A DNA stretch of 64,000 nt. It comes from Candidatus Tayloriibacteriota bacterium. GTDB taxonomy: Bacteria; Patescibacteriota; Minisyncoccia; Phycocordibacterales; PALSA-1337. The stretch is taken from contig JACRJP010000002.1 in the NCBI GenBank assembly GCA_016215455.1, positions 87,622 through 151,621 on the forward strand, given 5' to 3'. How positions within the stretch are numbered: the stretch's first letter is position 1; each line of letters starts with the position of its first letter. This document shows, in pieces, positions 3,146 through 62,415 of this stretch. Under the pieces are notes generated by a model, which saw only the letters and a list, made by a program, of their open reading frames with translations, had not been told where the DNA came from and did no database searches. The translations under genes and the position numbers were made by a program.

Positions 3146-3147
3146 AA

Positions 3148-4362: not shown

Positions 4363-4370
4363 ATAGATAA

Positions 4371-30097: not shown

Positions 30098-31000
30098 TTG
30101 AACTACCCTCGCTCAACAATCAGCCTGAAAAATATTCTATTAATCCTAGGTGCTGTAGTCATCATCGGAGGGTCTCTTATTGTCTCAAAACGAAATACTG
30201 AAAAAAATAAAGCTGCACAACTTACGTATCAAGCACCACTTGTAGCAACTACAAGTCTCATCACCATTGAAGGGGATACTACAAAAGATTGGGAAAAAGA
30301 ACTGATTTCAACCCACACCTATGATCCAAAAAATCCCACAGTAAGTTTTTCAACAAGTACTAATGCCAAGGACAAGAAACTCACTTCAACTGAGATACTC
30401 GCTCGAACTTTGTTTGCAAAATACATGTCACTCAACCAGCTCGGTCTCGGAAAAGATCCTCAGAGTCAGCAGGATAGTATCAACGAAGTTCTTGCAGCAA
30501 GTCTCAAAGATTTTAATCCTCCTGTGTACAGTGATAAACAAATCAAAGTAAGCAGTGACACAAGTACTGATGCTCTAAAAAAATATGGTAACGCAGTTGG
30601 TGAAACTTTTCTTACAAACACTGTCAGTGCACGAAACGAGACTGTAATCTTGAAAGAGGCAGTTGAAAATAACGATCCAAAAGTTTTAGCTGAACTTGAT
30701 CCAACTCTCGCAAGTTATCGAAAGATGCTCGTTGGACTTTTTGCGATACCTGCTCCAAAAAATATGGCAGCAAATCATCTCGCCATGATCAACAACGTAG
30801 CTGGTCTTATTTATCTTATTGAAAATTTTAAAAAAGCTTTTACCGATCCTGTTATGAGTCTACAGGCTGTAGGATACTATCAACAAATAGCTGAAGGTCT
30901 TGGGATATCATTTACTAATATAAGAAATACTCTTATGCAAGGAAATGTTACCTACACAATCACAGAAGGGGGTTCATTCTTTATTGCACCACAAAAATGA
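30098..31000 (+). CDS. N-terminally membrane-anchored extracytoplasmic protein, first gene of the T4SS-like operon (hypothetical)
   Basis: TM ILLILGAVVIIGGSLIV followed by a 270 aa soluble domain. TATAAT at 30065-30070 just upstream. Confidence 0.5.
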   Translation: MNYPRSTISLKNILLILGAVVIIGGSLIVSKRNTEKNKAAQLTYQAPLVATTSLITIEGDTTKDWEKELISTHTYDPKNPTVSFSTSTNAKDKKLTSTEILARTLFAKYMSLNQLGLGKDPQSQQDSINEVLAASLKDFNPPVYSDKQIKVSSDTSTDALKKYGNAVGETFLTNTVSARNETVILKEAVENNDPKVLAELDPTLASYRKMLVGLFAIPAPKNMAANHLAMINNVAGLIYLIENFKKAFTDPVMSLQAVGYYQQIAEGLGISFTNIRNTLMQGNVTYTITEGGSFFIAPQK

Positions 31001-32685: not shown

Positions 32686-32687
32686 TT

Positions 32688-34949: not shown

Positions 34950-35560
34950 TAAACACAAATATACCTTCAGAAATACTTGATGTTGCAAATTCTGCCGCCT
35001 TATTTGATAAGGTAGAACTTGTCACAAAACCATTTGAACTTCACATCAACCAAGTAGGTGAATTAGACTCTATCGTGCGACAAGCACTGAAAGGTGAAAT
35101 TCCTCGTGAAGAAATCTTGAAATATATTGTCGAGAACCTCGAGGTTGATGATGTTACTGGGAGTAAAATTCTTAAAACAATCAATCTCGAAATATTCCAA
35201 AAACTTCGTGAGCTCATTCTTGAGACTCACAATGAAAAGGAAGGTGGTAATGCTGAAGAAACATTAGCTCAAATCGAAAATACCGTGACGGAACCACTTG
35301 CGACAAAGTTACCTATAAATGTATTAGAAAAAAATACACCTCACGATCTCGCAAAAATTCCTGGCCAAACAGCGCACAATGTTCCTCATGTTGAACAAAC
35401 ACCACCAACACCTCCAATTGTCGAAAAACCTCGAAATCCCTTGCAGGGCCTAACTGCTCCTGTCCATAATCCAATGGAATCAGAGGTTCTTCAACCAAAA
35501 AAATCTCCTAACACACGTGGATACGACACAGTAGACCCATATCGTGAGCCGATTAATTAG
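34946..35560 (+). CDS. Soluble acidic protein with Pro-rich C-terminus (hypothetical) in T4SS-like operon
   Basis: ATG at 34946 overlaps the upstream stop by 4 nt. No TM segment. Confidence 0.45.
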   Translation: MINTNIPSEILDVANSAALFDKVELVTKPFELHINQVGELDSIVRQALKGEIPREEILKYIVENLEVDDVTGSKILKTINLEIFQKLRELILETHNEKEGGNAEETLAQIENTVTEPLATKLPINVLEKNTPHDLAKIPGQTAHNVPHVEQTPPTPPIVEKPRNPLQGLTAPVHNPMESEVLQPKKSPNTRGYDTVDPYREPIN

Positions 35561-35628
35561 GGCTGACGATAAGTAATCCCCTAAAGCTCTACAGAAGAGT
35601 AAAATGACAGTGTATACTATAGGTACGT

Positions 35629-36069
35629 ATGCGTTTCCAAGTCCCACAATTTATCGAAGTTGAGGATAAAGTCTTCGGACCACTCACCGTTAAGCAATTC
35701 ATCTATATTGCTGGTGGGGGAGGAGTTTCATTCATTATATGGTCACTTATCCCAGTTCCTCTCGTATTCAAACTAGTTATCATCCTCCCAATTATTGCAT
35801 TCTCATGCGCTTTGGCATTCTATAAGGTAAATAACAAACCCTTTATTAACGTTGTTGAAGCTGCATTCAAATATTTCTTTGCATCAAAGCTCTATATTTG
35901 GAAAAAAGCACCCAAAAAACCAGAAGTAGTAATGGCAGAGAGTCCACAGAAGCTTGTTGATGAATATAAGAGTATACTTGTACCAAAGATATCCGAAAGT
36001 AAACTCAAAGATCTCACATGGAGTCTCGATATTAAGGAAAGTATGTATTCCAACAAAAATCAACGCTAA
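35629..36069 (+). CDS. Small two-TM membrane protein, VirB3/PrgI-like position (hypothetical)
   Basis: 146 aa; hydrophobic hairpin FIYIAGGGGVSFIIWSLIPVPLVFKLVIILPIIAFSCALAF. Lies directly upstream of the VirB4-like ATPase, as VirB3 homologues do. Confidence 0.4.
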   Translation: MRFQVPQFIEVEDKVFGPLTVKQFIYIAGGGGVSFIIWSLIPVPLVFKLVIILPIIAFSCALAFYKVNNKPFINVVEAAFKYFFASKLYIWKKAPKKPEVVMAESPQKLVDEYKSILVPKISESKLKDLTWSLDIKESMYSNKNQR

Positions 36070-36707
36070 TGGCAAAAATATCAGGAACAACTCAAGAATT
36101 TGTACCGATCCGAGAAATACGAGATGGTGTTGTTATCTTGAAAGATGGCTCAATGAGAGCAATCGTTATGGCTTCATCTCTCAACTTTGCTCTCAAATCA
36201 ACAGATGAACAAAACTCTATCATCTATCAGTTTCAGAATTTCATCAACTCTCTTGATTTCTCTGTACAAATCTTTGTGCAATCAAAAAAGCTTGATATAC
36301 GGCCGTATATTAGTCTTCTTGAAGGACGCTATAAGGAGCAGGGTACTGATCTTATGAAGATCCAAACTCGTGAATACATTGAATTCATCAAAACTTTCGT
36401 TGAAAACAGTAATATCATGACAAAAAGCTTCTTTATAGTAATCCCTTATAGTCCTCCTGTTATCAATGACTCTCACAACCCAATCAAAAGTCTCCTCGGA
36501 AACTCATCGAGTGACAAAACAAAGGTGAGTGGCAGTGGATCATTCGATGAAAGTCGAACACAACTTGAACAACGTGTAGGAGTTGTGGAACAAGGTTTAA
36601 CACGCTGTGGAATTCGCGTAGCAGAACTTGGAACAGAGGAAATTGTCGAGCTCTTCTATAAGATATTCAATCCAGGAGACATGGAGAAGCCAATTCAACA
36701 ATCATAA
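36069..36707 (+). CDS. 212 aa soluble protein immediately 5' of the VirB4-like ATPase (possible detached VirB4 N-terminal domain)
   Basis: Start overlaps the upstream stop by 1 nt. Ends in TAA one nt before the ATG of the ATPase gene. Confidence 0.45.
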   Translation: MAKISGTTQEFVPIREIRDGVVILKDGSMRAIVMASSLNFALKSTDEQNSIIYQFQNFINSLDFSVQIFVQSKKLDIRPYISLLEGRYKEQGTDLMKIQTREYIEFIKTFVENSNIMTKSFFIVIPYSPPVINDSHNPIKSLLGNSSSDKTKVSGSGSFDESRTQLEQRVGVVEQGLTRCGIRVAELGTEEIVELFYKIFNPGDMEKPIQQS

Positions 36708-36708
36708 T

Positions 36709-38520
36709 ATGGGAATTTTAAATAAAATTTTTGGCAAAAAACAGGAAGAGGCCGTTGTATCAGTACTTCCACAAGAAATATATGAAGCTGGGGTGCTCGA
36801 ACTTCAGGATGTTATTGCTCCTTCAGCCCTTAAAATAAGTCCAAAAGAACTCAATCTTGGAGAAAAAGTAGCTCGTACTTTCTTTGTGATTTCATACCCA
36901 CGCTACCTTACTGACAGCTGGTTTGCCCCTATCATCAACCTTGATAAGGTTTTTAACATCTCAATCTTCATTCATCCGGTTGAAACAGCTAAGATCCTTC
37001 GACATTTCCAAAAGAAAGTAGCCGAAGTACAAAGCCAAATCAATGAACGTGAATCAAAAGGTCTCGTTCGTGATCCAATGCTCGATACTGCATATCAGGA
37101 TCTTGAACAACTTCGAGACAATCTTCTACAAGCACAAGAAAAGATCTTTGATGTCGGTGTGTACATCACAATATATGGTGATAACGATGGAGAATTGGAT
37201 AAGATAGAATCTGAGGTTAAATCAATCCTCGAAGCAAAACTTGTATACATCAAACCCGCACTCTTCCAACAAGCAGAAGGGTATAAGAGCGTACTACCGA
37301 TCGCTGATGATGAACTCATGGTTCATTCAAAGCTCAACTCAGCCCCACTTTCGAGTCTCTTTCCATTTGTTTCATTTGACCTTACATCAGACAAAGGAAT
37401 TCTCTATGGTATTAATCGTCATAATGCCAGTTTGGTACTCTTTGATCGATTTCTTCTTGAAAACTACAACTCAGTGACATTTGCAAAGGCTGGTTCTGGT
37501 AAATCATATTGTACAAAACTCGAAATTCTTCGAACACTTATGTTCGATACAGAAGTTATCGTGATCGACCCTGAACGCGAATATGAATACATGGCCGAAG
37601 CAACAGGAGGAAAGTACTTCAACATCTCACTTACATCAGAACACCACATCAATCCATTTGATCTTCCTGTACCACGCGAAGACGAAGCTCCATCAGATGT
37701 TCTTCGTTCACATATTGTTAATCTTGTAGGACTCTTCCGTATCATGATGGGAGGTATCAGCCGTGAAGAAGATGCGATTATTGATCGAGCAATTACCGAA
37801 ACATACGCTCTTAAGGATATTACTCCTGAGGCAGACTTTGCAAAGGTGGAACCACCACTCATGTCAGACTTTGAATATGTTCTTGCTGGCATGGAAGGAG
37901 GAGAGTCGCTTGTACAACGCCTTACGAAGTATACGAAGGGTACATGGTCAGGTTTCATCAATCGTCCAACCAACGTTGATATTAATAAAAAGTTCGTGGT
38001 GTTCTCTCTTCGAGATATGGAAGACGAACTCAAGCCAGTAGCAATGTATATTGTTACACACTTCATCTGGAACGCTATTCGTAAAAATCTCAAAAAACGC
38101 CTTCTTGTAATCGACGAGGCATGGTGGATGATGAAATCTGAAGATACGGCTTCATTCCTACTTGGTTTGGCAAAACGAGGTCGTAAATACTATCTTGGAC
38201 TTGCAACGATTACCCAGGACGTTGATGACTTCCTTAAATCTCCATATGGTCTACCTATCATCACCAACTCATCGATTCAGATACTTCTCAAGCAATCTCC
38301 ATCATCAATCGACAATATCCAGAGAACATTTAATCTCACTGATGAGGAAAAATATCTTCTTCTTGAATCAGATGTAGGAGAGGGGATATTCTTCGTGGGA
38401 CTAAAACATGTTGCAATCAAGGTTATTGCTTCATATACCGAAGATCAGATTATAACGACAAATCCTTCGCAAATTCTTGAAATTAAGCGTGCAAAGAAAG
38501 AACTCGAGGCTTCTCAATAA
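36709..38520 (+). CDS. VirB4/TrbE/TraC-family type IV secretion ATPase
   Basis: Walker A FAKAGSGKSY, Walker B LLVIDEAWWMM, and a conserved LATITQDVDDF block. 603 aa from ATG 36709; the ORF track gives 36628 in the same frame. Confidence 0.7.
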   Translation: MGILNKIFGKKQEEAVVSVLPQEIYEAGVLELQDVIAPSALKISPKELNLGEKVARTFFVISYPRYLTDSWFAPIINLDKVFNISIFIHPVETAKILRHFQKKVAEVQSQINERESKGLVRDPMLDTAYQDLEQLRDNLLQAQEKIFDVGVYITIYGDNDGELDKIESEVKSILEAKLVYIKPALFQQAEGYKSVLPIADDELMVHSKLNSAPLSSLFPFVSFDLTSDKGILYGINRHNASLVLFDRFLLENYNSVTFAKAGSGKSYCTKLEILRTLMFDTEVIVIDPEREYEYMAEATGGKYFNISLTSEHHINPFDLPVPREDEAPSDVLRSHIVNLVGLFRIMMGGISREEDAIIDRAITETYALKDITPEADFAKVEPPLMSDFEYVLAGMEGGESLVQRLTKYTKGTWSGFINRPTNVDINKKFVVFSLRDMEDELKPVAMYIVTHFIWNAIRKNLKKRLLVIDEAWWMMKSEDTASFLLGLAKRGRKYYLGLATITQDVDDFLKSPYGLPIITNSSIQILLKQSPSSIDNIQRTFNLTDEEKYLLLESDVGEGIFFVGLKHVAIKVIASYTEDQIITTNPSQILEIKRAKKELEASQ

Positions 38521-38526
38521 AACTCC

Positions 38527-39072
38527 ATGGCACAAAAAGGATCTATGTCAGCAGGAAAGTGGTTCATCCTCTATGTTATTAGTGGTTTTGTTGATCTTCT
38601 CCAAATAATTCTTGATTTTTTTGCTATTGGAATTGTAATCAATAGAGTTATTGATATCTTTTTAGGACTTGGATTACCTATATATCTTCATCTCAATGGA
38701 ATTCCAATGTTCGAGACAAAGAATTTAATGCTCTATATATCTGTATTTATTGGTGAAGAAATTCCTCTTGTTGATGCACTTCCATTATGGACTTTTGAAG
38801 TTTGGCGTATGCATAAGAACTATATAACATCACAATTAACAGAGGCTGTCCCCGCACTTACCCCAACAGCTCAAGCTATGAGTGGTATTAAAAATCCTCA
38901 ACAAACTCCACCTCTTAATAAAGATGGGGTACGCCAGCCACCACAAAGACAACGCGTACAGCAAATTAAGGTCAATACTTCTCAAAAACAACAAGAAGCA
39001 GATATTATATCCCCTGACTTCAATCAAACTTCTGAGAAATCCTCAGATGATGACCTTAAAGAGGCAGCATAG
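38527..39072 (+). CDS. Polytopic small membrane protein with Gln/Pro-rich tail (hypothetical)
   Basis: 3-4 predicted TM helices in the first 110 residues. Confidence 0.45.
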   Translation: MAQKGSMSAGKWFILYVISGFVDLLQIILDFFAIGIVINRVIDIFLGLGLPIYLHLNGIPMFETKNLMLYISVFIGEEIPLVDALPLWTFEVWRMHKNYITSQLTEAVPALTPTAQAMSGIKNPQQTPPLNKDGVRQPPQRQRVQQIKVNTSQKQQEADIISPDFNQTSEKSSDDDLKEAA

Positions 39073-39091
39073 TATGCTAAAATAATAGGGT

Positions 39092-40126
39092 ATGCATTCT
39101 CGTACTCTTAGAATTTTGACTGTCTTCTTCATAACCCTTGTTGTTGTAGGGACACTAGCTTCAACCCCACTCACTGTTTCAGCACAACAACCTTATGATT
39201 CTTTTGCCATTGAAACTACACCAACAAATCCAGCACCCGGACAAAGTGTAGTTGTTCAAGTAAAAAGTCTTTCTTCAGACATCGCACACGCTGATATTGC
39301 TTGGTATGAAGGATCGACCTTACTCAAAAGAGGGAATGGTCTCTCACAAATTACCGTCACAGCCCCAAAAAACGGAACTTCTATGAAGATTACCTCTATC
39401 ATTAGGGCGTCTGATGGAAAATCGTCAACACAGACAGTAACTATCCGCTCTGGTGAGGTTGATATGTCATGGGAAGCTCTAACATACACACCACCTCTAT
39501 ATCAGGGTCGTAGTATCTATACAAGTCAATCGAATATTAAAATTGTCGCACTTCCAAATCTTCGTGATAACAACGGTCGTTTAATTTCTCCTGATGATCT
39601 TGTGTACAAATGGAAAAAAGACTCAACAGTACTCGGAAGTCTTTCTGGATATGGAAAACAGAGCCTTACTCTAAAAGGAGACATTGTATCTCGGCCTTTT
39701 ACAATTACCGTAGATGTTGCTTCTCGCGACAATAGTATTAAAGGTCAAGGTTTTATGAATGTCGATGCTGTTGATCCTGAGGTACTACTCTATGAAGAAG
39801 ATCCTTTGTACGGTGTACTCTACAATCGTGCTGTTGGTGAACAGTTTTCATTAAAAAACGAAACAAAACTTACTGCTGAACCATATTATTTTTCTACAAC
39901 AAACAAAAGTGACTCTGCTTTACGTTATACATGGAGTATTAATCGACTTGAACAAAACGATATTCGAGGAACAAATCTTATCCTACGACCAAAAGGGGAT
40001 GTGGAAGGAGTTTCTTTAATTTCTCTTAGAATTGATAACTTACGAGAAATTCTCCAAAGTAGTTCAGCTGAAATTGGGGCATACTTTAGTAAAAAACAAC
40101 AAGAGGAGCTTCCTTTATTTCAATAA
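39092..40126 (+). CDS. Secreted beta-rich protein (hypothetical, possible surface/adhesin component)
   Basis: Signal peptide MHSRTLRILTVFFITLVVVGTLASTPLTVSAQ. Repeated Ser/Thr-rich beta-like segments. Confidence 0.5.
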   Translation: MHSRTLRILTVFFITLVVVGTLASTPLTVSAQQPYDSFAIETTPTNPAPGQSVVVQVKSLSSDIAHADIAWYEGSTLLKRGNGLSQITVTAPKNGTSMKITSIIRASDGKSSTQTVTIRSGEVDMSWEALTYTPPLYQGRSIYTSQSNIKIVALPNLRDNNGRLISPDDLVYKWKKDSTVLGSLSGYGKQSLTLKGDIVSRPFTITVDVASRDNSIKGQGFMNVDAVDPEVLLYEEDPLYGVLYNRAVGEQFSLKNETKLTAEPYYFSTTNKSDSALRYTWSINRLEQNDIRGTNLILRPKGDVEGVSLISLRIDNLREILQSSSAEIGAYFSKKQQEELPLFQ

Positions 40127-40129
40127 AAT

Positions 40130-41263
40130 ATGAAAAAAATACTTTTTATAATCGCAACTCTACTCATACTCACAAATCCTAGTGAAGGAAAAGCTGCTAT
40201 TCAAAGTTATAAACTACTTGAACCTCTTCCTTGTATCGGAACAACACAAGAATGTGTTGGGGGAAGGGTAGAACAAGTAGATCTCAAATCATACGTAGGA
40301 TACATTTTCAAACTTGTAATTGCCTTAGCTGGTGCTATTGCTGTATTTCGCATTACATGGGGAGGCTTTAAATACATGACGACCGACGCTATATTCGGTA
40401 AACAAGAAGGAAAGAAGGAGGTCAAAGACGCAATATATGGCTTAATCATGATACTTGCCTCATATCTTATACTTCGAACAATTGATCCACGGTTGGTAAA
40501 TATTAATACTGAAATTAAACCAATTGAACAAGCTGAGTACATAGACATGAACTCACTTTTTACTGACGTTGAAGAAGCAAGCAAGACTCTCTCAGAGGCA
40601 AATAAAACAGCCGGTGAATTAAGAGCTCAGATTGCAGCACTCAGAGCCCAGGCGGGAACGACAACGGATGAAGATTTAAGCATTCGACTTCGAACGGAAG
40701 CTCTTAATCTTGAACGTAAGGCTGAGAATATAACAGCAAATGCTGTAGCTGATGTAAATTTCGATTTGGCGAGAAAATCATTACAACAAAATACTGAGGT
40801 TTCTCTAAGCACGTCATTTAAAACCGATCTCGAATCAAGAATAAGAGTTATAGAAAAATCAGTACAAACAAACGTTCAACAACTGACTGATCTCGGAGAT
40901 ATTGATGGGGCAGCAAAACTTAAAGACAAAGGCAACTTCTATGTTATGTCAGTACGAGACGAATTAGATTTTACCGAGAAATTTAAAAAGATTGAAGAGA
41001 TAAATAATACCCGAACCACATGGACGACTGGTTTATGGGGTGGGCCGTATCTATACCTACTTGGAAAAGGTGTTGATAAAATTAAAAGTAAAAATGAATC
41101 TATTGTAGTTGCAGGAGATACTTTGATTAGTGAACTTCGAGCAAAAGAATCAAAAGCTCAACAATCAACAGATCCAGCACTGCAACAAGGCTACCTTGAT
41201 AATCTTCATGAACAAATTAAACAAACAGAAGATTTAATTAAACCACTTCGTCCAAATCCATGA
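40130..41263 (+). CDS. VirB2/TrbC-like pilin-topology domain fused to 250 aa coiled-coil region
   Basis: Signal peptide, then two hydrophobic helices (YIFKLVIALAGAIAVFRITWGGF and IYGLIMILASYLILRTI) separated by a short charged loop. Then a long Ala/Glu/Lys/Gln-rich helical region. Confidence 0.4.
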   Translation: MKKILFIIATLLILTNPSEGKAAIQSYKLLEPLPCIGTTQECVGGRVEQVDLKSYVGYIFKLVIALAGAIAVFRITWGGFKYMTTDAIFGKQEGKKEVKDAIYGLIMILASYLILRTIDPRLVNINTEIKPIEQAEYIDMNSLFTDVEEASKTLSEANKTAGELRAQIAALRAQAGTTTDEDLSIRLRTEALNLERKAENITANAVADVNFDLARKSLQQNTEVSLSTSFKTDLESRIRVIEKSVQTNVQQLTDLGDIDGAAKLKDKGNFYVMSVRDELDFTEKFKKIEEINNTRTTWTTGLWGGPYLYLLGKGVDKIKSKNESIVVAGDTLISELRAKESKAQQSTDPALQQGYLDNLHEQIKQTEDLIKPLRPNP

Positions 41264-42579
41264 AAAAAAGCACAGCATCATTACTTATATTCATAGTTCT
41301 CCTCATTCTTGGAGGGATTGGTTGGTATGTCTATACAACAAAGATTGCCCCACAGACAGGCACAACAGGTACTGATCCTTTTGGAGGATTTAACCCACTT
41401 GGAGGAACTGGCTCTACAGCGGTACCAGCAAATAATCAGGTGCCTACAACCCCTGATAGTCCTACAACAACCACACCGACACCAACCAAACTTCCTTTAC
41501 TACGACAACTTACTATAACACCAGTAGCTGGGGCTATGGCTTCGACAACAGCATCTTCAACAATTGTAAGATATGTTGATCGTGGGGTAGGGCATATATA
41601 TGAAATATCTCTAACTTCAAATGATTCTCAAAAAATCACCAACACAACAATTCCTCGTGTCTATACAACAACATGGAACCGACAAGGTACAGCTGTCATT
41701 CTTCGCTATATCAAAGAGGGAAGTACAATAATTAGTAACTTCTACGCAGACATCATCCCTCCAAAGAAGATTGTTGCGTCCTCTTCACCAAAAACAGCAA
41801 CAAGTACAGCAACCTCAACTATCGTTTCAACCCCAACACCCGTACAAGATGTTGTTGGTGAATTAAAAGGAAGATTTTTCCCAAGTAATATAATTGATAT
41901 AGCTGTTTCACCAAAAGGAGATCGTCTTTTTATCCTGTCCGAGGAAGGTGAGGGGAGTGTTGGATACCTCTCTCGTTTTACCGGAGATACTCGAACACAG
42001 ATATTTAATTCTCCACTTACACAATGGAATGTTGATTGGAATAATGAAGATAGTATTATACTAACCACAAAGGCAACCTACGCAGGTGTAGGTTTTGCAT
42101 ATCTTATTGATCTCAAGAAAGGTACTACAGAAAAGATCCTAGGGCCTTTGCGAGCACTCACAACAAAAGCAAGTACTGATACAACACAGTTATTCTATAC
42201 TTCGAGCGTTGATGGTAAACGCTTTATCTCAAAGATATTTACTCTAAAAGACCAAACTTCTCAGGATGTTGTATTCAGAACTCTCCCTGAAAAGTGTGTG
42301 TGGAGTAAGAAAAACTCTTCAATTATATTCTGTGCGGTACCAACAGACTTACGTGATACAAACCTACCTGATAGTTGGTATCAAGGAAAGGTTTCTTTTG
42401 TTGATACAGTATGGGAACTTGATACAGAAACAGGGGAGGTTCGCCAATTATCTAATCTTCTTGATCAATCAGGAAAGATAATTGATGTTACCAATCCATT
42501 CTTAGATCCAAAAGAAAACTTCCTCATCTTCACAAACAAACGAGACTTGACCCTCTGGTCACTTGATATTCAAGACTAA
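41260..42579 (+). CDS. Membrane-anchored protein with Thr/Pro-rich linker and beta-propeller-like C-terminal domain (hypothetical)
   Basis: N-terminal TM LLIFIVLLILGGIGWYVY, Thr/Pro linker, then repeated beta-strand-like segments. Last gene of the operon. Confidence 0.5.
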   Translation: MKKSTASLLIFIVLLILGGIGWYVYTTKIAPQTGTTGTDPFGGFNPLGGTGSTAVPANNQVPTTPDSPTTTTPTPTKLPLLRQLTITPVAGAMASTTASSTIVRYVDRGVGHIYEISLTSNDSQKITNTTIPRVYTTTWNRQGTAVILRYIKEGSTIISNFYADIIPPKKIVASSSPKTATSTATSTIVSTPTPVQDVVGELKGRFFPSNIIDIAVSPKGDRLFILSEEGEGSVGYLSRFTGDTRTQIFNSPLTQWNVDWNNEDSIILTTKATYAGVGFAYLIDLKKGTTEKILGPLRALTTKASTDTTQLFYTSSVDGKRFISKIFTLKDQTSQDVVFRTLPEKCVWSKKNSSIIFCAVPTDLRDTNLPDSWYQGKVSFVDTVWELDTETGEVRQLSNLLDQSGKIIDVTNPFLDPKENFLIFTNKRDLTLWSLDIQD

Positions 42580-53726: not shown

Positions 53727-55400
53727 CTAGTATTCAGTGATGTCAATCACACGTTCGAGCTCATCAAGAGTTGTAATTCCTTTGAGTACTTTGAGAACAC
53801 CATCTTGTGGCATTGTGAGAAGTCCTTGTGGTCGTGCAGCGTCACGAATGAGTTTTTCGCTTGATCCAGTTTCAATGAGATTGTTAACTGCTTCATCAAT
53901 GAGAATGCCTTCATACACACCAACTCGGCCTTTGTATCCAGTCTTATTACACTTATCACACCCAACAGCTTCCCAAACTTTTGTGTGTTCAGTAGGGATT
54001 TCGTTTTTATCAGTAATAGCATTGAGCACTTTCTCAACTTTTTCAAGAACTGGTCCAGTGAGAGTTGATTCTTTTCTACATACAGGACAAAGTTTTCGAA
54101 CGAGACGTTGAGCAAGAGCAATGGTTATAGCAGAACTAATTACTCGAGAGTTGATACCTAGATCGAGAAGGCGGGGGAATGAGCCAGCTGCATTGTTGGT
54201 GTGGAGAGTAGAAAATACCAAGTGACCCGTCAATGCAGAGTTGATGGCGATTGCCGCTGTCTCGCTATCTCGAATTTCTCCCACCATGATGATGTCAGGA
54301 TCTTGTCGGAGAGCTGAGCGGAGTCCTTCAAGGAAGGTGTAACCCTGGTCATTAACTTGTGTTTGTACGATACCAGGAAGATGGTATTCGATAGGGTCTT
54401 CAATGGTAATAATCTTAATTGCAGGAGCATGTACCTTCTTGAGAAGAGCATAGAGGGTTGTTGTTTTTCCTGAGCCAGTAGGACCTGTTGTAAGGAGCAT
54501 GCCGTTTGGTTTGTCGATCTGGCGGAGAATAGTGGCAAGTAACTTATCATGAATACCAAGTTCCTCAAGCGGAACAGAAATTGATTTTGGATTCAAAATA
54601 CGAAGTACCACCGATTCGTTATATGCACCCGGTAGAATCGAGGTTCGAATTTCAATATCAGTATCTTTGAGGTGCACACTAAAGCGACCATCCTGAGAAT
54701 CTTTTTTGATATTAAGTTTGAGTCCTGAAAGAAGTTTGATACGAGAAAGGAGAAGGGTATAAGTACTTGTGTCAAAACGAAGAACATCCTGAAGTACACC
54801 GTCGAGTCGATAACGAATACGAATGTATTCTTCTTCTGGTTCGATATGAACGTCAGATGCTCCTGTTGCAAGTGCACCAGCGAGAATTGTTTCGAGAATA
54901 CGCGAGATACGGTAGCTTTTCTTCTGAGTAAAGATGTCAGTAAGAATCTCTTGAACTTGAGGAAGGCCTGTTACTTGATCAACAATCTTTGCAATTTCAT
55001 CATTTGAAATTTCAAGTGAACCCGCTTTTGTTTCATAGGCAAATGAAAGATCTTTGTAAGCATTCCAACCTTTTTCAAGACTTGCTGTTGAGGCTACGTT
55101 TACATTCACTTCAAATCCTTTTTCTTCAAGAGATTTAATAACAGCAACAGTCTTCTCGTCTCCTGGCTGACGAGCGGCCACCTTTAGTTTTTTGTCGAAA
55201 ATAGCATAAGCAACGATACGTGCTTCTCGAGAATCTTTCTCATCAATGAGACGAAGAGCATCGGTGTTAACAGCTACGGTTGATAGGTCAACATAGTCGA
55301 GACTGTATTTAGCACCAAGAAGTTGAACAAGATCTTCTTCCTCTTTTTTTAGTAGCTCTGCGAGCTTATGTTTCTGCTTGTCTTCGTCAAATTGAACCAT
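53727..55400 (-). CDS. Second PilB/GspE-family secretion ATPase
   Basis: GspE N-terminal domain (LGAKYSLDYVDLS), Walker A GPTGSGKTTT, tetracysteine motif CPVC...CDKC. 557 aa. Confidence 0.8.
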   Translation of the reverse strand: MVQFDEDKQKHKLAELLKKEEEDLVQLLGAKYSLDYVDLSTVAVNTDALRLIDEKDSREARIVAYAIFDKKLKVAARQPGDEKTVAVIKSLEEKGFEVNVNVASTASLEKGWNAYKDLSFAYETKAGSLEISNDEIAKIVDQVTGLPQVQEILTDIFTQKKSYRISRILETILAGALATGASDVHIEPEEEYIRIRYRLDGVLQDVLRFDTSTYTLLLSRIKLLSGLKLNIKKDSQDGRFSVHLKDTDIEIRTSILPGAYNESVVLRILNPKSISVPLEELGIHDKLLATILRQIDKPNGMLLTTGPTGSGKTTTLYALLKKVHAPAIKIITIEDPIEYHLPGIVQTQVNDQGYTFLEGLRSALRQDPDIIMVGEIRDSETAAIAINSALTGHLVFSTLHTNNAAGSFPRLLDLGINSRVISSAITIALAQRLVRKLCPVCRKESTLTGPVLEKVEKVLNAITDKNEIPTEHTKVWEAVGCDKCNKTGYKGRVGVYEGILIDEAVNNLIETGSSEKLIRDAARPQGLLTMPQDGVLKVLKGITTLDELERVIDITEY

Positions 55401-55471
55401 ATTGTTTTTTTATTGCTCTAAGTATATCGCAGAAGGGAAAAGAAGGGAAAAATGGCTCTAGATAAGAGATA

Positions 55472-55501
55472 TTGACGATACGGTCATTTAAATGGTATAA
55501 T
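55472..55501 (+). promoter_or_regulatory. Near-consensus sigma70 promoter (TTGACG-N18-TATAAT), preceded by a perfect tandem 10 bp repeat
   Basis: TTGACG at 55472-55477; TATAAT at 55496-55501. agaagggaaa occurs twice in tandem at 55431-55450. Confidence 0.45.
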
Positions 55502-55567
55502 ATATAACAGGTGGGCACAGTGTTTGTGTCCAGATACCGTTCAACCGCAGCATTTTCCGTAACGTCT

Positions 55568-56089
55568 ATGAAACCCTCGTTCCTTATCAGTCTATTTCTC
55601 ACTCTCGCTACCCTCGTCACGGGTTGCGCCCAGTCAGGTGCAGCTCATCGGGTTTATCCTGGTGGAACAACTAGTTACTCCTCGACTACGTCGACGGAGT
55701 ATCATGTGTCCCGTCCGGGACCGTCGTGGCAGGGTAACAACTTCTACGATCATCCGATCGGAGCGAGTCGGATTACTCCGGTTCGCACGTATCGGAGCGA
55801 GACTTTGGTGGACCTTGGAGTATTCCAACACCATCGAGTGTCAGAGAAGGTAGCCTCTCCAACACTAATTCTGCCAGATGGCAGGTCGGTAACGGAGGTT
55901 ACCCGCTATCAGTCGACTCAAACGTCGACTCGACCCCAGCAGGTCTATCCCACCACATCCTACGGTGGGTTCACTGGTGTCCAGCCCTCCTACATCGATA
56001 ATACGTCGGGGAGGTCGGGTCGCAGTTCATTTCCATCGTCATCGGTGACGGTGACCCCAGTGTCGCCTTTCAGGGCATTGGGTAGGTGA
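55568..56089 (+). CDS. Lipoprotein, Ser/Thr/Arg/Pro-rich, encoded in a conspicuously GC-rich segment
   Basis: MKPSFLISLFLTLATLVTGC signal with lipobox. The ORF track starts at GTG 55511. Codons such as TCG/ACG/GTC/CGG dominate, unlike neighbouring genes. Confidence 0.5.
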   Translation: MKPSFLISLFLTLATLVTGCAQSGAAHRVYPGGTTSYSSTTSTEYHVSRPGPSWQGNNFYDHPIGASRITPVRTYRSETLVDLGVFQHHRVSEKVASPTLILPDGRSVTEVTRYQSTQTSTRPQQVYPTTSYGGFTGVQPSYIDNTSGRSGRSSFPSSSVTVTPVSPFRALGR

Positions 56090-56166
56090 CTGAGTCACCA
56101 ACACGTTTACGGCCGGCAGCATGCGCAAGCATCTGCCGGCCTAAATCTTTATGTTATGATATTTGC

Positions 56167-56619
56167 ATGCTTACGATTTCACATACGGTTGCCGAAACAG
56201 AATCACTCGCTTCTTTTTTTATATCTAAGTTAGTTGCTCGACCTCCAACCGCAGTTGCTACAGTTCTTGGTTTAAATGGTGATCTTGGATCAGGCAAGAC
56301 TGCATTTACAAAGGGAATAGCTCAAGCCCTCCATGTTCAGGAGCTCGTTACGAGTCCTACATTTGTTATTGAAAAGATATACCAACTCGACAATTCTCGT
56401 TTTGCTAACCTTATTCATATTGATGCATATCGACTTGATAAGGGGGAAGATTTGGTGAGACTTGGTTGGGATGCCATCATTAAAGACCCAAAGAATCTTA
56501 TTATCGTTGAATGGCCACAGAATGTAAAAGATATTATGCCAGCTAATACTATTGATATTGTGTTCACTTTCGTTGATCCTGCTACACGAGGAATTGAGAT
56601 TAAAGAAATACAACAGTAG
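56167..56619 (+). CDS. tsaE: tRNA threonylcarbamoyladenosine biosynthesis ATPase TsaE
   Basis: Walker A GDLGSGKTAFTKG and IHIDAYRL motif. ATG 56167 preferred over ORF-track 56086. Confidence 0.75.
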   Translation: MLTISHTVAETESLASFFISKLVARPPTAVATVLGLNGDLGSGKTAFTKGIAQALHVQELVTSPTFVIEKIYQLDNSRFANLIHIDAYRLDKGEDLVRLGWDAIIKDPKNLIIVEWPQNVKDIMPANTIDIVFTFVDPATRGIEIKEIQQ

Positions 56620-57035
56620 AGTAAAAATAAAAAGAGGTTAGGTGCCGGCAGGTAGCGCCCTACACACCACTACACGGGACATATACCCACCGGCACCAAC
56701 TCGAACTTAGGAGGGGGCTTTACTTCCCTCACTACGCCGCAACCCATCCGGGCTCGACATCTTTTCAATAGTTTATGATCAGGTCCGGCGGGCGTAAGCA
56801 ACACACAGCCTGCCCGCCGGACCATCACCCACAACCACAGCTACAACACACAAACTTGCAGGTGACCTCAGTCAGTCAATCCGCGTATCCATGTATCTCT
56901 TAACCTAGCAGTATGGCTGACGAAGATGAAGAGTGATCAAACTATTCTATCTAGCGTAATTGTACGCCCGTAGAGTTTTTGTTGTCAAATTTCTTTTTAG
57001 CACACTTTTTATTTGGTTAGGATATAATCTCATTA

Positions 57036-59495
57036 ATGCCAAAGACACCAGCAAAAACTACGTCACAAGAGCGATTAATCCTTCTTGATGCACATGCAAT
57101 CCTTCATCGTGCATATCATGCTCTTCCTGATTTCATGTCGACGAAAGGAGAACCTACAGGAGCTTTGTATGGTCTTGCAACAATGCTCATTAAGATCATT
57201 CAGGACCTGAAGCCAACATATATTGTTGCGTGTTACGATCTTCCTCAACCAACATATCGTCATGAGGTATATAAGGATTATAAAGCGGGACGTAAAAAGG
57301 CTGAACCTGAGCTTGTCTCACAGATGAAACGGTCACGTGACGTGTTCACTGCTTTTGATATTCCTATATATGACAATCCAGGATTTGAAGCTGATGACAT
57401 GCTCGGTACGATTGTTGAACAGGTTCTCAAAGGAAAAGAATTTAAAAATATCGATGTTGTTATTGCTTCAGGTGATATGGACACTCTTCAGCTTATTGAA
57501 GGAAAAAGAATCCAGGTATACACGTTAAAGAAGGGAATAAAAGATACTATTTTGTACGATGAAGAAGGAGTAATGAATCGATTTGGTTTTGGTCCAAAAC
57601 TTTTACCCGACTACAAAGGTCTTCGAGGAGACACTTCAGATAATATTATCGGTATTAAAGGTATTGGAGAAAAAACTGGCAGTATTCTCATTCAAACATT
57701 CGGTACGATTGAAAATATGTATAAGGAGCTCGATAAGAGCGACGAGCCTTTTAAAAAAGTAGGAATTACTCCACGTATCATAGACCTTCTAAAAAATGGA
57801 AAAGAAGAAGCAATGTTCAGTAAGATGCTCGCTTCAATTCGTCGAGATGCTCCAATTAAATTTTCTTTGCCGCATCCATGGAAGAGTGCTATTGATATGA
57901 AAAAGATCGATATGTTATGTGCAGATCTCGATTTCCGTACTCTCGGTGCTCGTGTTCGTGAAGCTATATCAGGTAAGATTGCATCAACAAAAAATAGCTC
58001 AACACAGTCTTCTGATGAGGGTTATCATGTTGCGTATGGAGAAGGAGAGGGTGATATAGAAACACATGATGGTGATACTCCAGAAACTATCGATGAAAAA
58101 GAATTACAGGAGACATTACTCGCTCTCTGGGTGGCTGATTCAAACAAAACGAATCCAACACTCGATGATATCTACACATTTGCTGGTGTTCGTAACTTTG
58201 CTCAGGCACGTGAGATTATATTCAACGAACTCAAAAAACGTGGAGGTGAAAAGATTCTTGAGACAATAGAAAAGCCACTTACACCTGTTCTTAAAAAGAT
58301 GCAGGACTATGGTATCAAGATTGATGTTACATATCTCAAGAAACTTTCGGAGGACTATCATATTGAGCTCGAAAAGATTCAAAAGAAGATTTGGGAATAT
58401 GCCGGTGAGGAATTTAATGTTGCTTCTCCAAAACAACTAGGTGAAATTTTGTTCGTAAAGATGGGACTCAAGGTAAAGAATCAAAAAAAGACAGGAACAG
58501 GTGCTTTTTCAACAAAAGAATCTGAGCTCGAAAAACTTCGTGAGACACACCCGATTATTGAGGAGATTCTCAAGTATCGAGAATTCGCAAAGCTTTTGGG
58601 TACATATATTGATGTGATTCCTACACTCGTTGATGATGGTAATCGTCTTCATACAACATTTATTCAATCAGGTGCTGCGACTGGTCGCATGGCATCTGAA
58701 AATCCTGGTATTCAAAATATTCCGAATAAGACAGAACTCGGACGCGCTATTCGTCGGGCCTTTATTGCGGAGAAGGGAATGAAGTTGCTTGCATTCGATT
58801 ATTCTCAAATTGAATTACGTATCGCAGCTTTTCTATCAGGTGATGAGAAACTCATTTCTATTTTTAAAAATGGTGAAGACGTTCACACCGCAGTTGCTTC
58901 ACAAGTATTTGGTATTCCGCTTGATAAGGTTGATAAAGAAATGCGACGACAAGCAAAAGTCATTAACTTCGGTGTCATGTATGGTATGGGAGTAAATGCA
59001 TTACGACAAAATCTTGGTACGGATCGTGCTGCTGCTCAGAAATTCTATGATGAATACTTTGCTAAGTTTTCAGGACTCGCAACATATCTTGAAAAGACAA
59101 AAGCAGAGACTGCTCTAAAAGGCTATACTGAGACGTTTTTTGGACGTCGCCGTTACTTCGAGGGTATTCGTTCAAAACTTCCTTTTATCCGTGCATCTGC
59201 TGAACGTATGGCAATCAATGCTCCTATTCAAGGAACTGAAGCGGATATTGTAAAGATCGCTATGATACGAGTGGATGAGTGGCTTACTGAAAAGAAATTC
59301 GGTGATAGTGTTCGTATGCTACTTCAAGTGCATGATGAACTTGTGTTTGAGGTTGAAGAAAAAATGATTCCTAAGATTGTCCCTGATATTCAGAGAATTA
59401 TGCAATCTGTTATTGATCCAAAAGAAACAAAGGGTGTTGTTTGTACAACTGAAGCGAAGGTGGGGGATACATGGGAAGATATGGATAAGTTATAA
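57036..59495 (+). CDS. polA: DNA polymerase I (5'-3' exonuclease + polymerase domains)
   Basis: FEN-type N-terminus (LLDAHAILHRAYHAL). Polymerase motifs RRQAKVINFGVMYGMG and QVHDELVFE. 819 aa. Confidence 0.9.
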   Translation: MPKTPAKTTSQERLILLDAHAILHRAYHALPDFMSTKGEPTGALYGLATMLIKIIQDLKPTYIVACYDLPQPTYRHEVYKDYKAGRKKAEPELVSQMKRSRDVFTAFDIPIYDNPGFEADDMLGTIVEQVLKGKEFKNIDVVIASGDMDTLQLIEGKRIQVYTLKKGIKDTILYDEEGVMNRFGFGPKLLPDYKGLRGDTSDNIIGIKGIGEKTGSILIQTFGTIENMYKELDKSDEPFKKVGITPRIIDLLKNGKEEAMFSKMLASIRRDAPIKFSLPHPWKSAIDMKKIDMLCADLDFRTLGARVREAISGKIASTKNSSTQSSDEGYHVAYGEGEGDIETHDGDTPETIDEKELQETLLALWVADSNKTNPTLDDIYTFAGVRNFAQAREIIFNELKKRGGEKILETIEKPLTPVLKKMQDYGIKIDVTYLKKLSEDYHIELEKIQKKIWEYAGEEFNVASPKQLGEILFVKMGLKVKNQKKTGTGAFSTKESELEKLRETHPIIEEILKYREFAKLLGTYIDVIPTLVDDGNRLHTTFIQSGAATGRMASENPGIQNIPNKTELGRAIRRAFIAEKGMKLLAFDYSQIELRIAAFLSGDEKLISIFKNGEDVHTAVASQVFGIPLDKVDKEMRRQAKVINFGVMYGMGVNALRQNLGTDRAAAQKFYDEYFAKFSGLATYLEKTKAETALKGYTETFFGRRRYFEGIRSKLPFIRASAERMAINAPIQGTEADIVKIAMIRVDEWLTEKKFGDSVRMLLQVHDELVFEVEEKMIPKIVPDIQRIMQSVIDPKETKGVVCTTEAKVGDTWEDMDKL

Positions 59496-60241: not shown

Positions 60242-61321
60242 TTAGTAACGGGCAACCTTCCAGCTTATTTTTTGACCTGCTCGGAAGGGGACGATCTTCG
60301 TTACGAATTTTGCCCCATTTCGCACGTCGTAGGCGAGGGGTACCGTCCAAGCCCGCTTCACCATAGTGAGCATTCTGGTTCTCCGCTTAATCCCATAGAA
60401 TGCGAGACCAAACTGACTTGAGAATCCTGCAAGACGTTCGAGAGCCTCATGTTTTTCGAACAATTCAACGAGCAAGGGGAGAGCAACGGGTGTTGTCCAA
60501 ACTCCAGCAGCACAACAATCAGCCTCCTTCTTGTCGAAGGGATGAGGCGCTGAGTCTGTTCCCCAGAAGAATTTGGGATCCCCTGAGATTGCGGCTCGCA
60601 CAAGAGCATCCCGGTCTTCGGGGCGCTTGGCATACGGGCGACACGCATGGTGTGGCCTGAGAAATTCACCTGCTCCAACAGGATCACACAACACATTGTT
60701 GAGGGTGAGAAAGAGATGATGCAAGGTGATACTTGCCGCAACCGTTTTCCCAAGATTTCGAACCAAATCAACAGCCGCTTTGGTGGTGATGTGTTCGAGA
60801 ACAATCCGCAGTGTCGGGAAATCCCGATGAAGTTGTCGAAGATATTCAAAGAAGAATTCTTCTCGATCGAGAACGAAGACATCTCCTCCGACTTCGCCGT
60901 GAATACAGAGAATCACCCCTGTGTCTTCCATGGCTTTGAATGTCGGGTATAGCTCGCGGAGCTTGTCCAAGTCGACACCGTCTGCTGAATTGGTCGTGAC
61001 ACCGACGGGATACATCTTCGCCGCAACAACACCCAACTTCTTGGCTTGAATGATGATATCCGGCGTGGTTTCCATTGTGAGCTTGATGAGGGTAAGTGGG
61101 AGAAACGAAGCGTTTGCTCCTCGGGCTGACCTCATGATGTCCGATTGGTAACGGCAAGCATCCTCACCGGTAAGAATGGGAGGGTTTGTGTTGGGCATGA
61201 CGATCGCACCATCAAAATGTCGTGCCGTGAGTCTCGTGACAAGACGCATGAGAGGACCTTGTCTCAGATGCGTATGCATATCGAAAGGACGAGGGATACG
61301 GAACATGGGAACTGATGTCAT
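60242..61321 (-). CDS. pyrC: Dihydroorotase (E. coli PyrC-type, class II)
   Basis: RPFDMHTHLRQG metal-binding start. Other blocks: AIVMPNTNPP, KMYP..TTNS, HGEV, LEHITT, GTDSAPH. Clearly GC-rich. Confidence 0.85.
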   Translation of the reverse strand: MTSVPMFRIPRPFDMHTHLRQGPLMRLVTRLTARHFDGAIVMPNTNPPILTGEDACRYQSDIMRSARGANASFLPLTLIKLTMETTPDIIIQAKKLGVVAAKMYPVGVTTNSADGVDLDKLRELYPTFKAMEDTGVILCIHGEVGGDVFVLDREEFFFEYLRQLHRDFPTLRIVLEHITTKAAVDLVRNLGKTVAASITLHHLFLTLNNVLCDPVGAGEFLRPHHACRPYAKRPEDRDALVRAAISGDPKFFWGTDSAPHPFDKKEADCCAAGVWTTPVALPLLVELFEKHEALERLAGFSSQFGLAFYGIKRRTRMLTMVKRAWTVPLAYDVRNGAKFVTKIVPFRAGQKISWKVARY

Positions 61322-61413: not shown

Positions 61414-62415
61414 TCAGCGATATGCGAGCCCCCGCTTATAGCGGATACTCTCATCTATGGTGGTTGCAACCATTGTCGGCGCAAGGAAGGCGATCGATCC
61501 CAACGAAATCGCATCAGCTCCAGCATCCAAGACTTCTTTGGCTGTGCGAGGAGAAGTGATTCCGCCTCCACCGATGATTGGTTTTCTGATTCCAGTGGCG
61601 CGCGCCTCTTTGATCCAACTCGTCACCATTGCGTGAAGAGGGGTTCCTGAGATACCGCCTCTGCCTTTGGGACCGAAGCGGTGTTCAAGAGGCGAGGTTG
61701 TCGTTCCAAAATACGACATCCTCAGTTCATCACTCGCCGCATTCCATGGTAGGGTGTTGAAGACGCATAAGGCTGCACATGCAGGTTCAACTGCAATTGT
61801 TCGTGCGATAGTCACAGGTGTCCCTGGCGAAAGCTTGACGATGTAGGGGACATCGAATTCATCTTTCGCTGCACGGAGCACGGGAACCACTTCGTCGGTG
61901 AACTCAGTGGGGTCGTGTCCTGTGTTGGGACAACTGAAATTAATCTGCACCCCAAATGGAGCCTTGAACTCCGGTTTCTTGTCGCGAAGCATTCGTGTCA
62001 TCGCAACAATTTCAGTAAGGCGTTGCGACGGAGTGTCTGCGACAGACATGATCGAAATCATGAAAGGTTCTGGCCATCTTTGCCAAAATCCTTGCTCGAG
62101 CAGAAATTCCATTCCAGGTCCGGAAAGACCAACTGCATTGATTGCGGCGCCTGTCCGTCGGTTGACGTGGATACATTTCGGCATCCACTCGCAGGGAGTG
62201 ACCCCGTCTGGTTTCAGGGGCATATTTCCTGCCCGAGCGTTCAGGGTAGTGGTCTTGCTCACGAATGTTGAACCATTGAAGTTAAGACCAAAAGGTTTGA
62301 GAAGATGGTGATACCACCAGCCTTTGCCGTGAAAATTACGAACGCCTGATGCGTCGATTACAGGAGAAAAGGGAATTCCCTCGAGATACAGTGTCTCTGA
62401 TCCAAGTGTGTGCAT
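61414..62415 (-). CDS. pyrD: Dihydroorotate dehydrogenase family protein (class 1-like, Cys active site)
   Basis: ASG motif (VIDASGV), active-site NFSCPNTG, FMN-binding PIIGGGGI...AGADAISLGS. GC-rich. Confidence 0.7.
   Translation of the reverse strand: MHTLGSETLYLEGIPFSPVIDASGVRNFHGKGWWYHHLLKPFGLNFNGSTFVSKTTTLNARAGNMPLKPDGVTPCEWMPKCIHVNRRTGAAINAVGLSGPGMEFLLEQGFWQRWPEPFMISIMSVADTPSQRLTEIVAMTRMLRDKKPEFKAPFGVQINFSCPNTGHDPTEFTDEVVPVLRAAKDEFDVPYIVKLSPGTPVTIARTIAVEPACAALCVFNTLPWNAASDELRMSYFGTTTSPLEHRFGPKGRGGISGTPLHAMVTSWIKEARATGIRKPIIGGGGITSPRTAKEVLDAGADAISLGSIAFLAPTMVATTIDESIRYKRGLAYR

Follow-up and report, generated by a model that had tools for sequence, protein, structure and literature searches.

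A stretch of 64,000 nucleotides (nt) from a Candidatus Tayloriibacteriota bacterium (positions 87,622 to 151,621 of contig JACRJP010000002.1; here called the window) carries a GC-rich gene for a small putative lipoprotein in the slot between a pilB-like gene and tsaE. A preliminary description of this DNA had proposed that the gene was foreign and had been captured behind a resident promoter. The comparisons reported here identify it as a protein gene under purifying selection and point to vertical inheritance together with its neighbors. The left neighbor, divergent from the lipoprotein gene on the minus strand at 53727-55400, encodes a PilB-like type II secretion/type IV pilus ATPase (Pfam T2SSE, E = 8e-120). 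The conserved right neighbor, tsaE, lies on the plus strand at 56167-56619 (Pfam TsaE, E = 2.5e-30) and is also a gene call in L002, a record of the same DNA.

The lipoprotein coding sequence, stop codon included, runs on the plus strand from ATG 55568 to TGA 56089 and specifies a 173-amino-acid (aa) prolipoprotein whose N terminus reads MKPSFLISLFLTLATLVTGC. PROSITE rule PS51257 calls for [LVI][ASTVI][GAS]C, with the cysteine at residues 15-35, preceded by a hydrophobic stretch that contains no D, E, R, or K. The translation satisfies this rule: the lipobox LVTGC places Cys20 after a hydrophobic stretch (FLTLAT-LVTG-C), and Lys2 supplies a positive charge within the first seven residues. The signal peptide is encoded at 55568-55624, the codon of the lipobox cysteine occupies 55625-55627, and the mature part comprises 154 aa. 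The GC-rich lipobox lipoprotein of the preliminary description is real, and only its length had to be corrected, since 174 aa, the figure given for the mature protein, fits neither the precursor nor the mature form.

Between the window and its homologue in relative L001, substitutions in the coding sequence numbered 25, 11, and 67 at codon positions 1, 2, and 3, respectively. The nonsynonymous rate (dN) was 0.081 and the synonymous rate (dS) 0.90, giving a dN/dS ratio of 0.09, and two indels in the signal peptide were each 3 nt long and in frame. On these three counts the open reading frame (ORF) is unambiguously a protein gene under purifying selection, not an RNA gene. The two overlapping ORFs reported earlier, at 55634-55834 on the minus strand and 55638-55853 on the plus strand, do exist as by-products of high GC content and are not genes; they had no Pfam match, and the substitution periodicity suited the lipoprotein frame only.

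Sequence searches of Pfam, NCBIfam, and the PDB returned no match for either the window protein or the family profile, and neither matched the models for Braun lipoprotein (Pfam LPP), PilP, or PilF. AlphaFold2 models of the window protein and of the L003-type protein, each built from a 13-sequence alignment, had pLDDT values of 48 and 49. Only a central beta-hairpin around a conserved DG motif reached pLDDT 58-75, and the N-terminal linker and C-terminal tail looked disordered. The protein evolves fast: it is 47% identical to its counterpart in relative L163, versus 93% for PilB, and at the protein level it changes about 7 to 12 times faster than pilB. A literature search for an abundant Patescibacteria lipoprotein tied to type IV pili yielded nothing specific to this family.

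Promoter, leader, and terminator

A sigma-70-type promoter on the plus strand at 55472-55501 agrees with the consensus at 11 of 12 positions. Its TTGACG (55472-55477) and TATAAT (55496-55501) are separated by an 18-nt spacer that carries an extended -10 TG at 55493-55494. This is the near-consensus promoter first described, and the DNA upstream of the predicted transcription start has a GC content of 0.31. Behind the gene, an intrinsic terminator at 56111-56155 on the plus strand is formed by the hairpin GGCCGGCAG-CATGC-GCAA-GCAT-CTGCCGGCC (56111-56141; arms 56111-56119 and 56133-56141; stem of 9 + 4 bp) and a T-rich tail. The 9-bp GC arms had been noticed before, at 56109-56139, which is two bases too far to the left. 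A folding energy of about -28 kcal/mol was obtained for the 70-nt segment that follows the stop codon and includes this hairpin.

The promoter is kept in L001 and L163 as TTGACT-N18-TGGTATAAT, as are both terminator arms, which in L163 are followed by a clean T-run. Similar near-consensus promoters stand upstream of the slot gene in L003, L004, L083, and L007, and all seven flanks examined (window, L001, L163, L003, L004, L083, and L007) combined a near-consensus promoter with an intrinsic terminator of the unit's own, the L007 gene itself being unrelated. In L163, where an extra gene for IMP cyclohydrolase (1311-2075) is inserted between pilB and the lipoprotein gene, the promoter has stayed with the lipoprotein gene, about 1 kb from the repeat on the pilB side. 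Because it accompanies the gene in L163 and in every other case examined, the promoter is part of the lipoprotein unit, and the idea of a resident promoter that captured a passenger is contradicted.

The 10-bp tandem repeat AGAAGGGAAA, present in two perfect copies at 55431-55450 as originally reported, occurs once in the window and was reproduced in 0 of 100 shuffles. It lies upstream of the pilB ATG, at a distance of 31-50 nt, has the same sequence in L001, and adjoins pilB as an imperfect copy in L163. It thus belongs to the pilB upstream region and not to the lipoprotein promoter, with which it had been grouped.

The predicted 5' untranslated leader spans 55509-55567 on the plus strand (about 59 nt; 51% GC), its start being placed from the promoter. 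A stem-loop at 55513-55531, GGGCACA-gtgtt-TGTGTCC, with a 7-bp stem, directly abuts GTG 55511, the codon at which the preliminary description had suggested that a leaderless mRNA might begin. The sequence of this stem-loop is identical in L001, and L163 forms a 7-bp hairpin at the corresponding position from a different sequence, GTAGGCC-atgt-GGTCTAC. From GTG 55511 to ATG 55568 there was no codon periodicity (substitutions 4/4/3 by position versus L001), and a 4-nt insertion in the L001 leader puts the conserved GTG out of the lipoprotein frame. Together with the position of the GTG next to a conserved hairpin, these observations indicate that ATG 55568, with its MK... signal peptide, is the conserved start, and they speak against GTG 55511 as a conserved feature.

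Shine-Dalgarno sequences are nearly absent from this genome, with an SD-like tetramer at 4 of 42 window starts. In addition, -10-like hexamers (TAnn[AT]T) pile up 6-14 nt before the start codons of 19 of the 42 window genes. One example is tsaE, which has a -10-like TATGAT of its own at 56153-56158, 8 nt before ATG 56167. This pattern suggests that leaderless or very-short-leader mRNAs are widespread in the genome, and since they seem common, GTG 55511 may be in occasional use in this one strain.

Base composition follows the predicted transcript

GC content in 300-nt windows was 0.53-0.57 across the lipoprotein region, versus about 0.39 around it, and the gene itself was 55% GC. Its GC content at third codon positions (GC3), 0.56, was the highest among the 51 window ORFs, of which 47 lay at 0.20-0.36 and three enzyme genes at 0.44-0.51; at second positions (GC2) it stood at 0.58, versus about 0.35 for other genes. 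TCG made up 46% of the Ser codons (background, 6%) and ACG 35% of the Thr codons (background, 9%), and CGG and AGG were enriched as well. The compositional and codon-usage outlier status proposed earlier for the gene, with its preference for TCG, ACG, and CGG, was thus borne out.

The bias extended to the protein. Gly, Ala, Arg, and Pro (GARP) residues made up 0.26-0.31 of the lipoprotein, versus 0.13-0.25 in the products of neighbor genes, in all genomes examined. The ratio R/(R+K) was 0.87, versus 0.33-0.39 in the neighbors, which points to nucleotide-level pressure shaping the protein and not the reverse. By segment, GC content was 0.31 upstream of the predicted transcription start, 0.51 in the 5' untranslated region (UTR), 0.50-0.56 in the coding sequence, 0.63 from the 3' UTR through the terminator, and 0.20 farther downstream. 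The GC step in the window therefore tracks the predicted transcript and not the ORF.

A lipoprotein family with a fixed chromosomal position

Among 5.8 billion proteins searched, there was one identical copy, in L002, and a single homologue, the L001 protein. The latter is 84% identical and is encoded on a 2.3-kb contig with the same order of pilB, ORF, and tsaE. When the mature protein was compared with 1.84 billion representative proteins by phmmer, only the protein itself and P0003, the occupant of the same slot in L163 (53% identity), were recovered. By its flanking PilB protein, the window falls among uncultured Patescibacteria. The best species-level relatives have PilB identities of 65-69%, and pairwise BLASTP of the window protein against the counterparts in L003 and L004 was not significant. 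The slot lipoproteins of L004 and L083 matched each other (E = 5e-8), and hhalign linked the window group to the L083/L004/L003 group with an E value of 3.8e-5 and a probability of 71%. A profile search gathered 13 proteins; every one whose contig was read sits directly upstream of tsaE-polA and is divergent from pilB wherever the contig extends that far.

The resulting family has 14 members, found only in related Patescibacteria, and its members share the motifs ASRI..V..Y..RS.E, DG+SVT, and a C-terminal RA[IL]G...K/R. The lipobox is kept in 13 of the 14 members, and all 13 sequences of alignment A5 have G19 and C20. The exception is P0003 of L163, a protein outside that alignment whose type-I-like signal peptide lacks a cysteine; lipid modification is therefore not essential to the family. 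A C-terminal Lys or Arg is likewise found in 13 of the 14 members, the shorter P0014 being the one without it. From these searches, the family appears to be previously undescribed and restricted to one clade of Patescibacteria (Candidate Phyla Radiation).

The gene order ruvB-pilB/X-tsaE-polA, where X is the slot gene, is conserved in relatives, and the lipoprotein gene fills the slot in L001, L163, L003, L004, L083, and L164 to L170. Its three subfamilies coincide exactly with three PilB clades. No close relative was found with a tsaE upstream region devoid of the gene; it is absent only from the distant L008, L011, L012, and L016, whose PilB identity is at most 56%.

The GC excess accompanies the family. 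In L003 the lipoprotein gene has a GC content of 0.50 in a locus of 0.34, and a GC3 of 0.51 versus 0.21-0.30 in neighbor genes; in L004 the corresponding values are 0.49 and 0.36, with a GC3 of 0.49 versus 0.23-0.32; and in L083 they are 0.53 and 0.41, with a GC3 of 0.56 versus 0.36. The members found by the profile search had a GC3 of 0.41-0.54, versus 0.18-0.42 in their neighbors. Across ten genomes of 33-46% GC, lipoprotein GC3 was 0.41-0.59 versus 0.18-0.42 in the neighbors, about 20 points higher.

Several other genes were seen in the slot or next to it. An unannotated ORF of 157-161 aa, with no Pfam family on record, is present in L003 (4439-4924), L164 (2273-2749), and L165 (738-1211), and in L165 and L166 a second small secreted protein is encoded after the lipoprotein gene (L165, 1797-2207). 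Distant relatives carry GC-rich genes for lipoproteins or secreted proteins at the same position: L007 (4148-4846), L009 (4407-4856), L084 (3359-3853 and 2121-3011), L091 (3370-3843), and L092 (3020-3646). There was no detectable similarity to the family in the slot lipoproteins of L007, L009, L084, and L091, in the secreted proteins of L084 (its second ORF) and L092, or in a shorter lipoprotein ORF upstream of pilB in L010. The dissimilar slot genes of distant relatives could be the outcome of extreme divergence or of repeated replacement. A secreted protein of L007, encoded next to the slot lipoprotein (3294-4028, minus strand), contains an S-x-G-C-V-R motif, recognized by eye only, which we take to recall the active site of an L,D-transpeptidase (YkuD).

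Vertical inheritance

Under recent horizontal acquisition, a donor of high GC content would have supplied the gene, which would have landed downstream of a resident promoter in the space between pilB and tsaE too recently to have drifted to the host composition. The gene does invite such a reading: it deviates more in GC3 and codon usage than any other ORF of the window, where other GC-rich genes look like acquired enzymes, and it lies in a slot that accepts extra genes in relatives, namely, the IMP cyclohydrolase gene in L163 and the 157-161-aa ORF in L003, L164, and L165. The preliminary description had suggested as much and had named, as the observation that would refute it, orthologues of similar GC content at the same locus in close relatives. 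Such orthologues were found: all family-bearing relatives, from a PilB identity of 98% down to about 65%, share the locus and the GC excess, and this leads us to reject recent capture.

Divergence gave a concordant result. Between the window and L001, dS was 0.90 for the lipoprotein gene, 0.82 for pilB, and 0.87 for tsaE, so that the gene matches its flanks. When third-position changes were polarized with L163 as the outgroup, 20 were from A or T to G or C (W>S) and 8 were in the opposite direction (S>W); there is thus no sign of decay toward AT, with the qualification that the polarization is weak because dS to L163 is saturated (>3). As described above, the promoter has moved together with the gene. 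The surroundings yielded no tRNA, mobility gene, or direct repeats at the flanks, and no homologue was detected outside the clade among the 1.84 billion representatives or, by tblastn, in plasmids or phages, so that no donor is at hand.

Taken together, these comparisons indicate that the lipoprotein gene was inherited vertically with pilB, tsaE, and polA and was not recently imported. Import is very improbable; it could survive only in the form of an ancient transfer at the base of the clade, which would still need selection for the lasting high GC3. A neutral remnant of an old transfer would have decayed, since synonymous sites are saturated between subfamilies and GC3 nevertheless remains about 20 points above that of the neighbors.

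Folding of the lipoprotein mRNA

With a minimum free energy (MFE) of -0.41 kcal/mol/nt, the lipoprotein mRNA was the most stable in the window; the mean for 48 other genes was -0.22. The region 55500-56145 had a folding z score of -8.2 relative to dinucleotide shuffles, is full of short perfect hairpins, and folded better on the sense strand than on the antisense strand (-6.5 versus -3.3). Relative to synonymous-codon shuffles, which preserve both the protein sequence and the codon usage, z was -5.3 for the window gene, -3.4 for L001, -1.7 for L163, -1.8 for L003, -2.8 for L004, and -3.0 for L083, and six of the eight family members tested lay between -1.7 and -5.3. For unrelated slot occupants the values were -4.3 (L007), -0.1 (L084), and -6.8 (L091), and for the 48 other window genes the mean was -0.66 (standard deviation, 1.45). 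The order of synonymous codons, beyond codon content, adds about 35 kcal/mol of folding energy to the lipoprotein mRNA.

Values of this kind raise the question of a large structured noncoding RNA, in which the ORF would be incidental or the transcript would have a dual function. GC-rich islands in AT-rich genomes are often structured RNAs, and the strongly negative z score against dinucleotide shuffles, the better folding of the sense strand, the many short perfect hairpins, and the extension of the GC block beyond the ORF over the length of the transcript all fit such an RNA. Its probability is nonetheless very low, given the coding signature of 25/11/67 with a dN/dS ratio of 0.09, the in-frame indels, and the lipobox in 13 of 14 members. 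No Rfam family was recovered: Rfam 15 gave chance-level matches only, both at gathering thresholds for the whole window and at E <= 10 for 55350-57100. Furthermore, no compensatory changes were seen, broken pairs were no fewer than expected by chance, and only 59 of the 162 predicted pairs recurred in the L001 fold. It appears from these results that no specific RNA structure is conserved in the lipoprotein mRNA.

Cause of the GC excess

The best reading of the composition is that GC richness is ancient in the family and maintained by selection, being visible at all three codon positions, in the UTRs, and in the amino acid make-up. The excess might instead follow from the needs of the protein, which has a high content of Ser, Thr, Pro, Gly, Arg, and Ala and is disordered in part, with the odd codons reflecting chance or drift in a short gene. 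The raised GC2 and GARP contents agree with this proposal, as do models that predict mostly disorder around the central beta-hairpin. We regard it as quite improbable, as every member has a GC3 elevated by about 20 points despite saturated synonymous sites between subfamilies, the noncoding 5' and 3' UTRs are GC rich too, and the high R/(R+K) ratio indicates pressure at the nucleotide level.

As a cause of the GC excess, the strongest competitor is local recombination with GC-biased gene conversion at a fast-evolving, often-exchanged surface-protein locus, with no function at the mRNA level. The low identity of the protein to its L163 counterpart beside the high identity of PilB, the variable gene content of the slot, the excess of W>S over S>W changes at polarized third positions, and the lack of conserved specific RNA pairs are all in keeping with gene conversion. 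We judge it unlikely. The single close pair at hand shows the same dS for the gene as for its flanks and no sign of an imported allele; the W>S excess is itself weak, given the saturated outgroup; the sharp GC step follows the predicted transcript start and terminator; and the order of synonymous codons contributes folding energy of its own.

Selection on the transcript is the explanation that we favor, with moderate confidence: the lipoprotein gene would be a self-contained single-gene unit for a small envelope lipoprotein, with an abundant product and a compact, stable mRNA that has been selected as such. The gene's own near-consensus extended -10 promoter would initiate transcription at about 55509, and the mRNA would open with a stem-loop near its 5' end. 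Translation would begin at ATG 55568 without a Shine-Dalgarno sequence, as in nearly all genes of the genome; the precursor would be exported and lipid modified at Cys20; and transcription would stop at the 13-bp GC-rich hairpin just before tsaE. The GC trait would act at the mRNA level, making the message for an abundant envelope protein long-lived and resistant to nucleases. Individual bases would change pairing partners over time instead of keeping fixed ones, which would explain the negative outcome of the covariation test. High expression, mRNA stability as the selected property, lipidation, and surface location are inferred here; for the protein itself, we commit only to a putative lipid-anchored or secreted envelope protein that would be abundant.

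A broader version, which we hold tentatively and consider somewhat unlikely, is that long-term, clade-wide selection on an mRNA property has shaped synonymous sites, UTRs, and the choice between Arg and Lys. The property could be extreme longevity or nuclease resistance in ultrasmall cells with few ribosomes, or a second function at the RNA level, and the protein could perhaps be an Lpp-like tether, as hinted by its C-terminal basic residue.

Several results weigh against selection for a compact message encoding an abundant envelope lipoprotein. The codons used (TCG, ACG, CGG, and AGG) are G-ending, CpG rich, and rare in the genome, and they argue against simple translational optimization for high expression. 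The z score was weak, -0.1 to -1.8, in 3 of the 11 genes tested (L163, L003, and L084), and 3 of the 48 other window genes also had z scores below -4, so that excess folding is not unique to the lipoprotein gene. In the predicted MFE structure, no compensatory double changes separated the window from L001, a comparison of one close pair with low power; 32 pairs were broken where 36.2 +/- 3.5 were expected (P = 0.14), and synonymous change was slightly lower at paired sites (0.35 versus 0.47). Homology among the three subfamilies rests on a moderate profile-profile score together with synteny. AlphaFold confidence was low for both models, and the fold offers no functional hint. Finally, neither Lgt nor LspA was found among about 20 window ORFs scanned, in a search confined to the 64-kb window.

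Other features of the window

Three further GC-rich genes, all on the minus strand (11313-12203, 60242-61321, and 61414-62415; GC3, 0.44-0.51), encode enzymes of the inositol monophosphatase, Amidohydro_2, and dihydroorotate-dehydrogenase-like families, and are better candidates for acquired genes than is the lipoprotein gene. Strong folding without GC richness (z, -4.2 to -5.6) was seen in nusA (6300-7448) and in two unannotated genes of a secretion cluster (34922-35560 and 36069-36707). This cluster, at 30098-42579, includes a PrgI-family gene in a run of membrane and secreted proteins and has the appearance of a conjugation-like type IV secretion cluster. At 729-6161 lies a type IV pilus cluster with pilin-like genes and a second T2SSE ATPase (4371-6161).

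A second GC-rich block occupies the tsaE-polA spacer (56620-57035; core, 56640-56900), which is 47% GC overall and above 50% in its core. On the minus strand, the spacer has a promoter-like TTGACA-18-TACAAT at 56988..56959 and a hairpin, GGTGCCGG...CCGGCACC (56699-56643), followed by a T-run. The block gave folding z scores of -5.8 (minus strand) and -5.2 (plus strand). Rfam returned no match to it at E <= 10, none of the relatives fetched has a counterpart, and it may be a noncoding RNA of about 300 nt.

Significance and comparison with known systems

The locus is a cautionary case for genome scanning. A sharp island of GC content and codon usage, complete with overlapping ORFs, mimics a fresh transfer, and yet the gene is old and vertically inherited; composition alone would mislead here, and comparative data settle descent. 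The work also defines a small, uncharacterized lipoprotein family with a fixed place between the gene of a pilB-like ATPase and tsaE. The protein is probably highly expressed and probably exposed on the cell surface, so that it can reasonably be proposed for a part in envelope structure or host contact in these epibiotic bacteria. The clade-wide, transcript-bounded GC excess, combined with excess folding, is a testable candidate example of selection at synonymous sites for mRNA compactness. As a whole, a GC-rich, hyperfolded mRNA for an orphan lipoprotein family is mildly unusual and not a new kind of system.

Acquired GC-deviant genomic islets share with this gene a sharp local deviation in G+C content and codon usage within an AT-rich genome. 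Here, in contrast, the deviation is common to the orthologues of all relatives, the gene has codiverged with its neighbors, and signs of mobility and a donor are lacking. Large GC-rich RNAs of AT-rich bacteria in Rfam, such as OLE, ROOL, and GOLLD, resemble the lipoprotein region in forming a GC-rich island (about 630 nt here) with a very negative z score between a promoter and a terminator; they differ in that the lipoprotein region is protein coding under purifying selection, with no Rfam model and no covariation. Generic lipoprotein substrates of Lgt and LspA show the same signal-peptide organization, with Lys in the n-region, a hydrophobic h-region, and L-V-T-G-C with Cys20, whereas the family relative P0003 of L163 has a type-I-like signal peptide without the cysteine.

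The mRNA of Escherichia coli ompA is stabilized by a 5'-terminal stem-loop. The 7-bp hairpin of the window gene, about 4 nt from the predicted 5' end and kept in L163 with another sequence, is similar in placement, but the A-rich leaders of L004 and L083 have no 5' hairpin, and the 5' end in the window is a predicted one.

The closest working analogue is E. coli lpp, the mRNA of which was reportedly described in 1980 as hairpin rich. Patescibacteria are not known to possess an outer membrane. The two proteins have no sequence homology, as judged from the Pfam and NCBIfam searches, and the mature window protein is a 154-aa chain predicted to be beta rich or disordered, unlike Lpp, which is a 58-aa coiled coil. 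The window protein also ends in Arg, which has no epsilon-amino group of the kind that cross-links Lpp to peptidoglycan. Transcription of lpp is constitutive, its mRNA is stable (half-life, about 10 min), and each cell contains about 750,000 copies of the protein (PMC5924895); for the window gene, a stable mRNA and an abundant product are predictions. Both genes encode a small lipobox lipoprotein, form a unit of one gene, and have an intrinsic terminator of their own as well as a strong promoter set in AT-rich DNA, and just as Lpp ends in Lys, 13 of the 14 members of the window family end in Lys or Arg.

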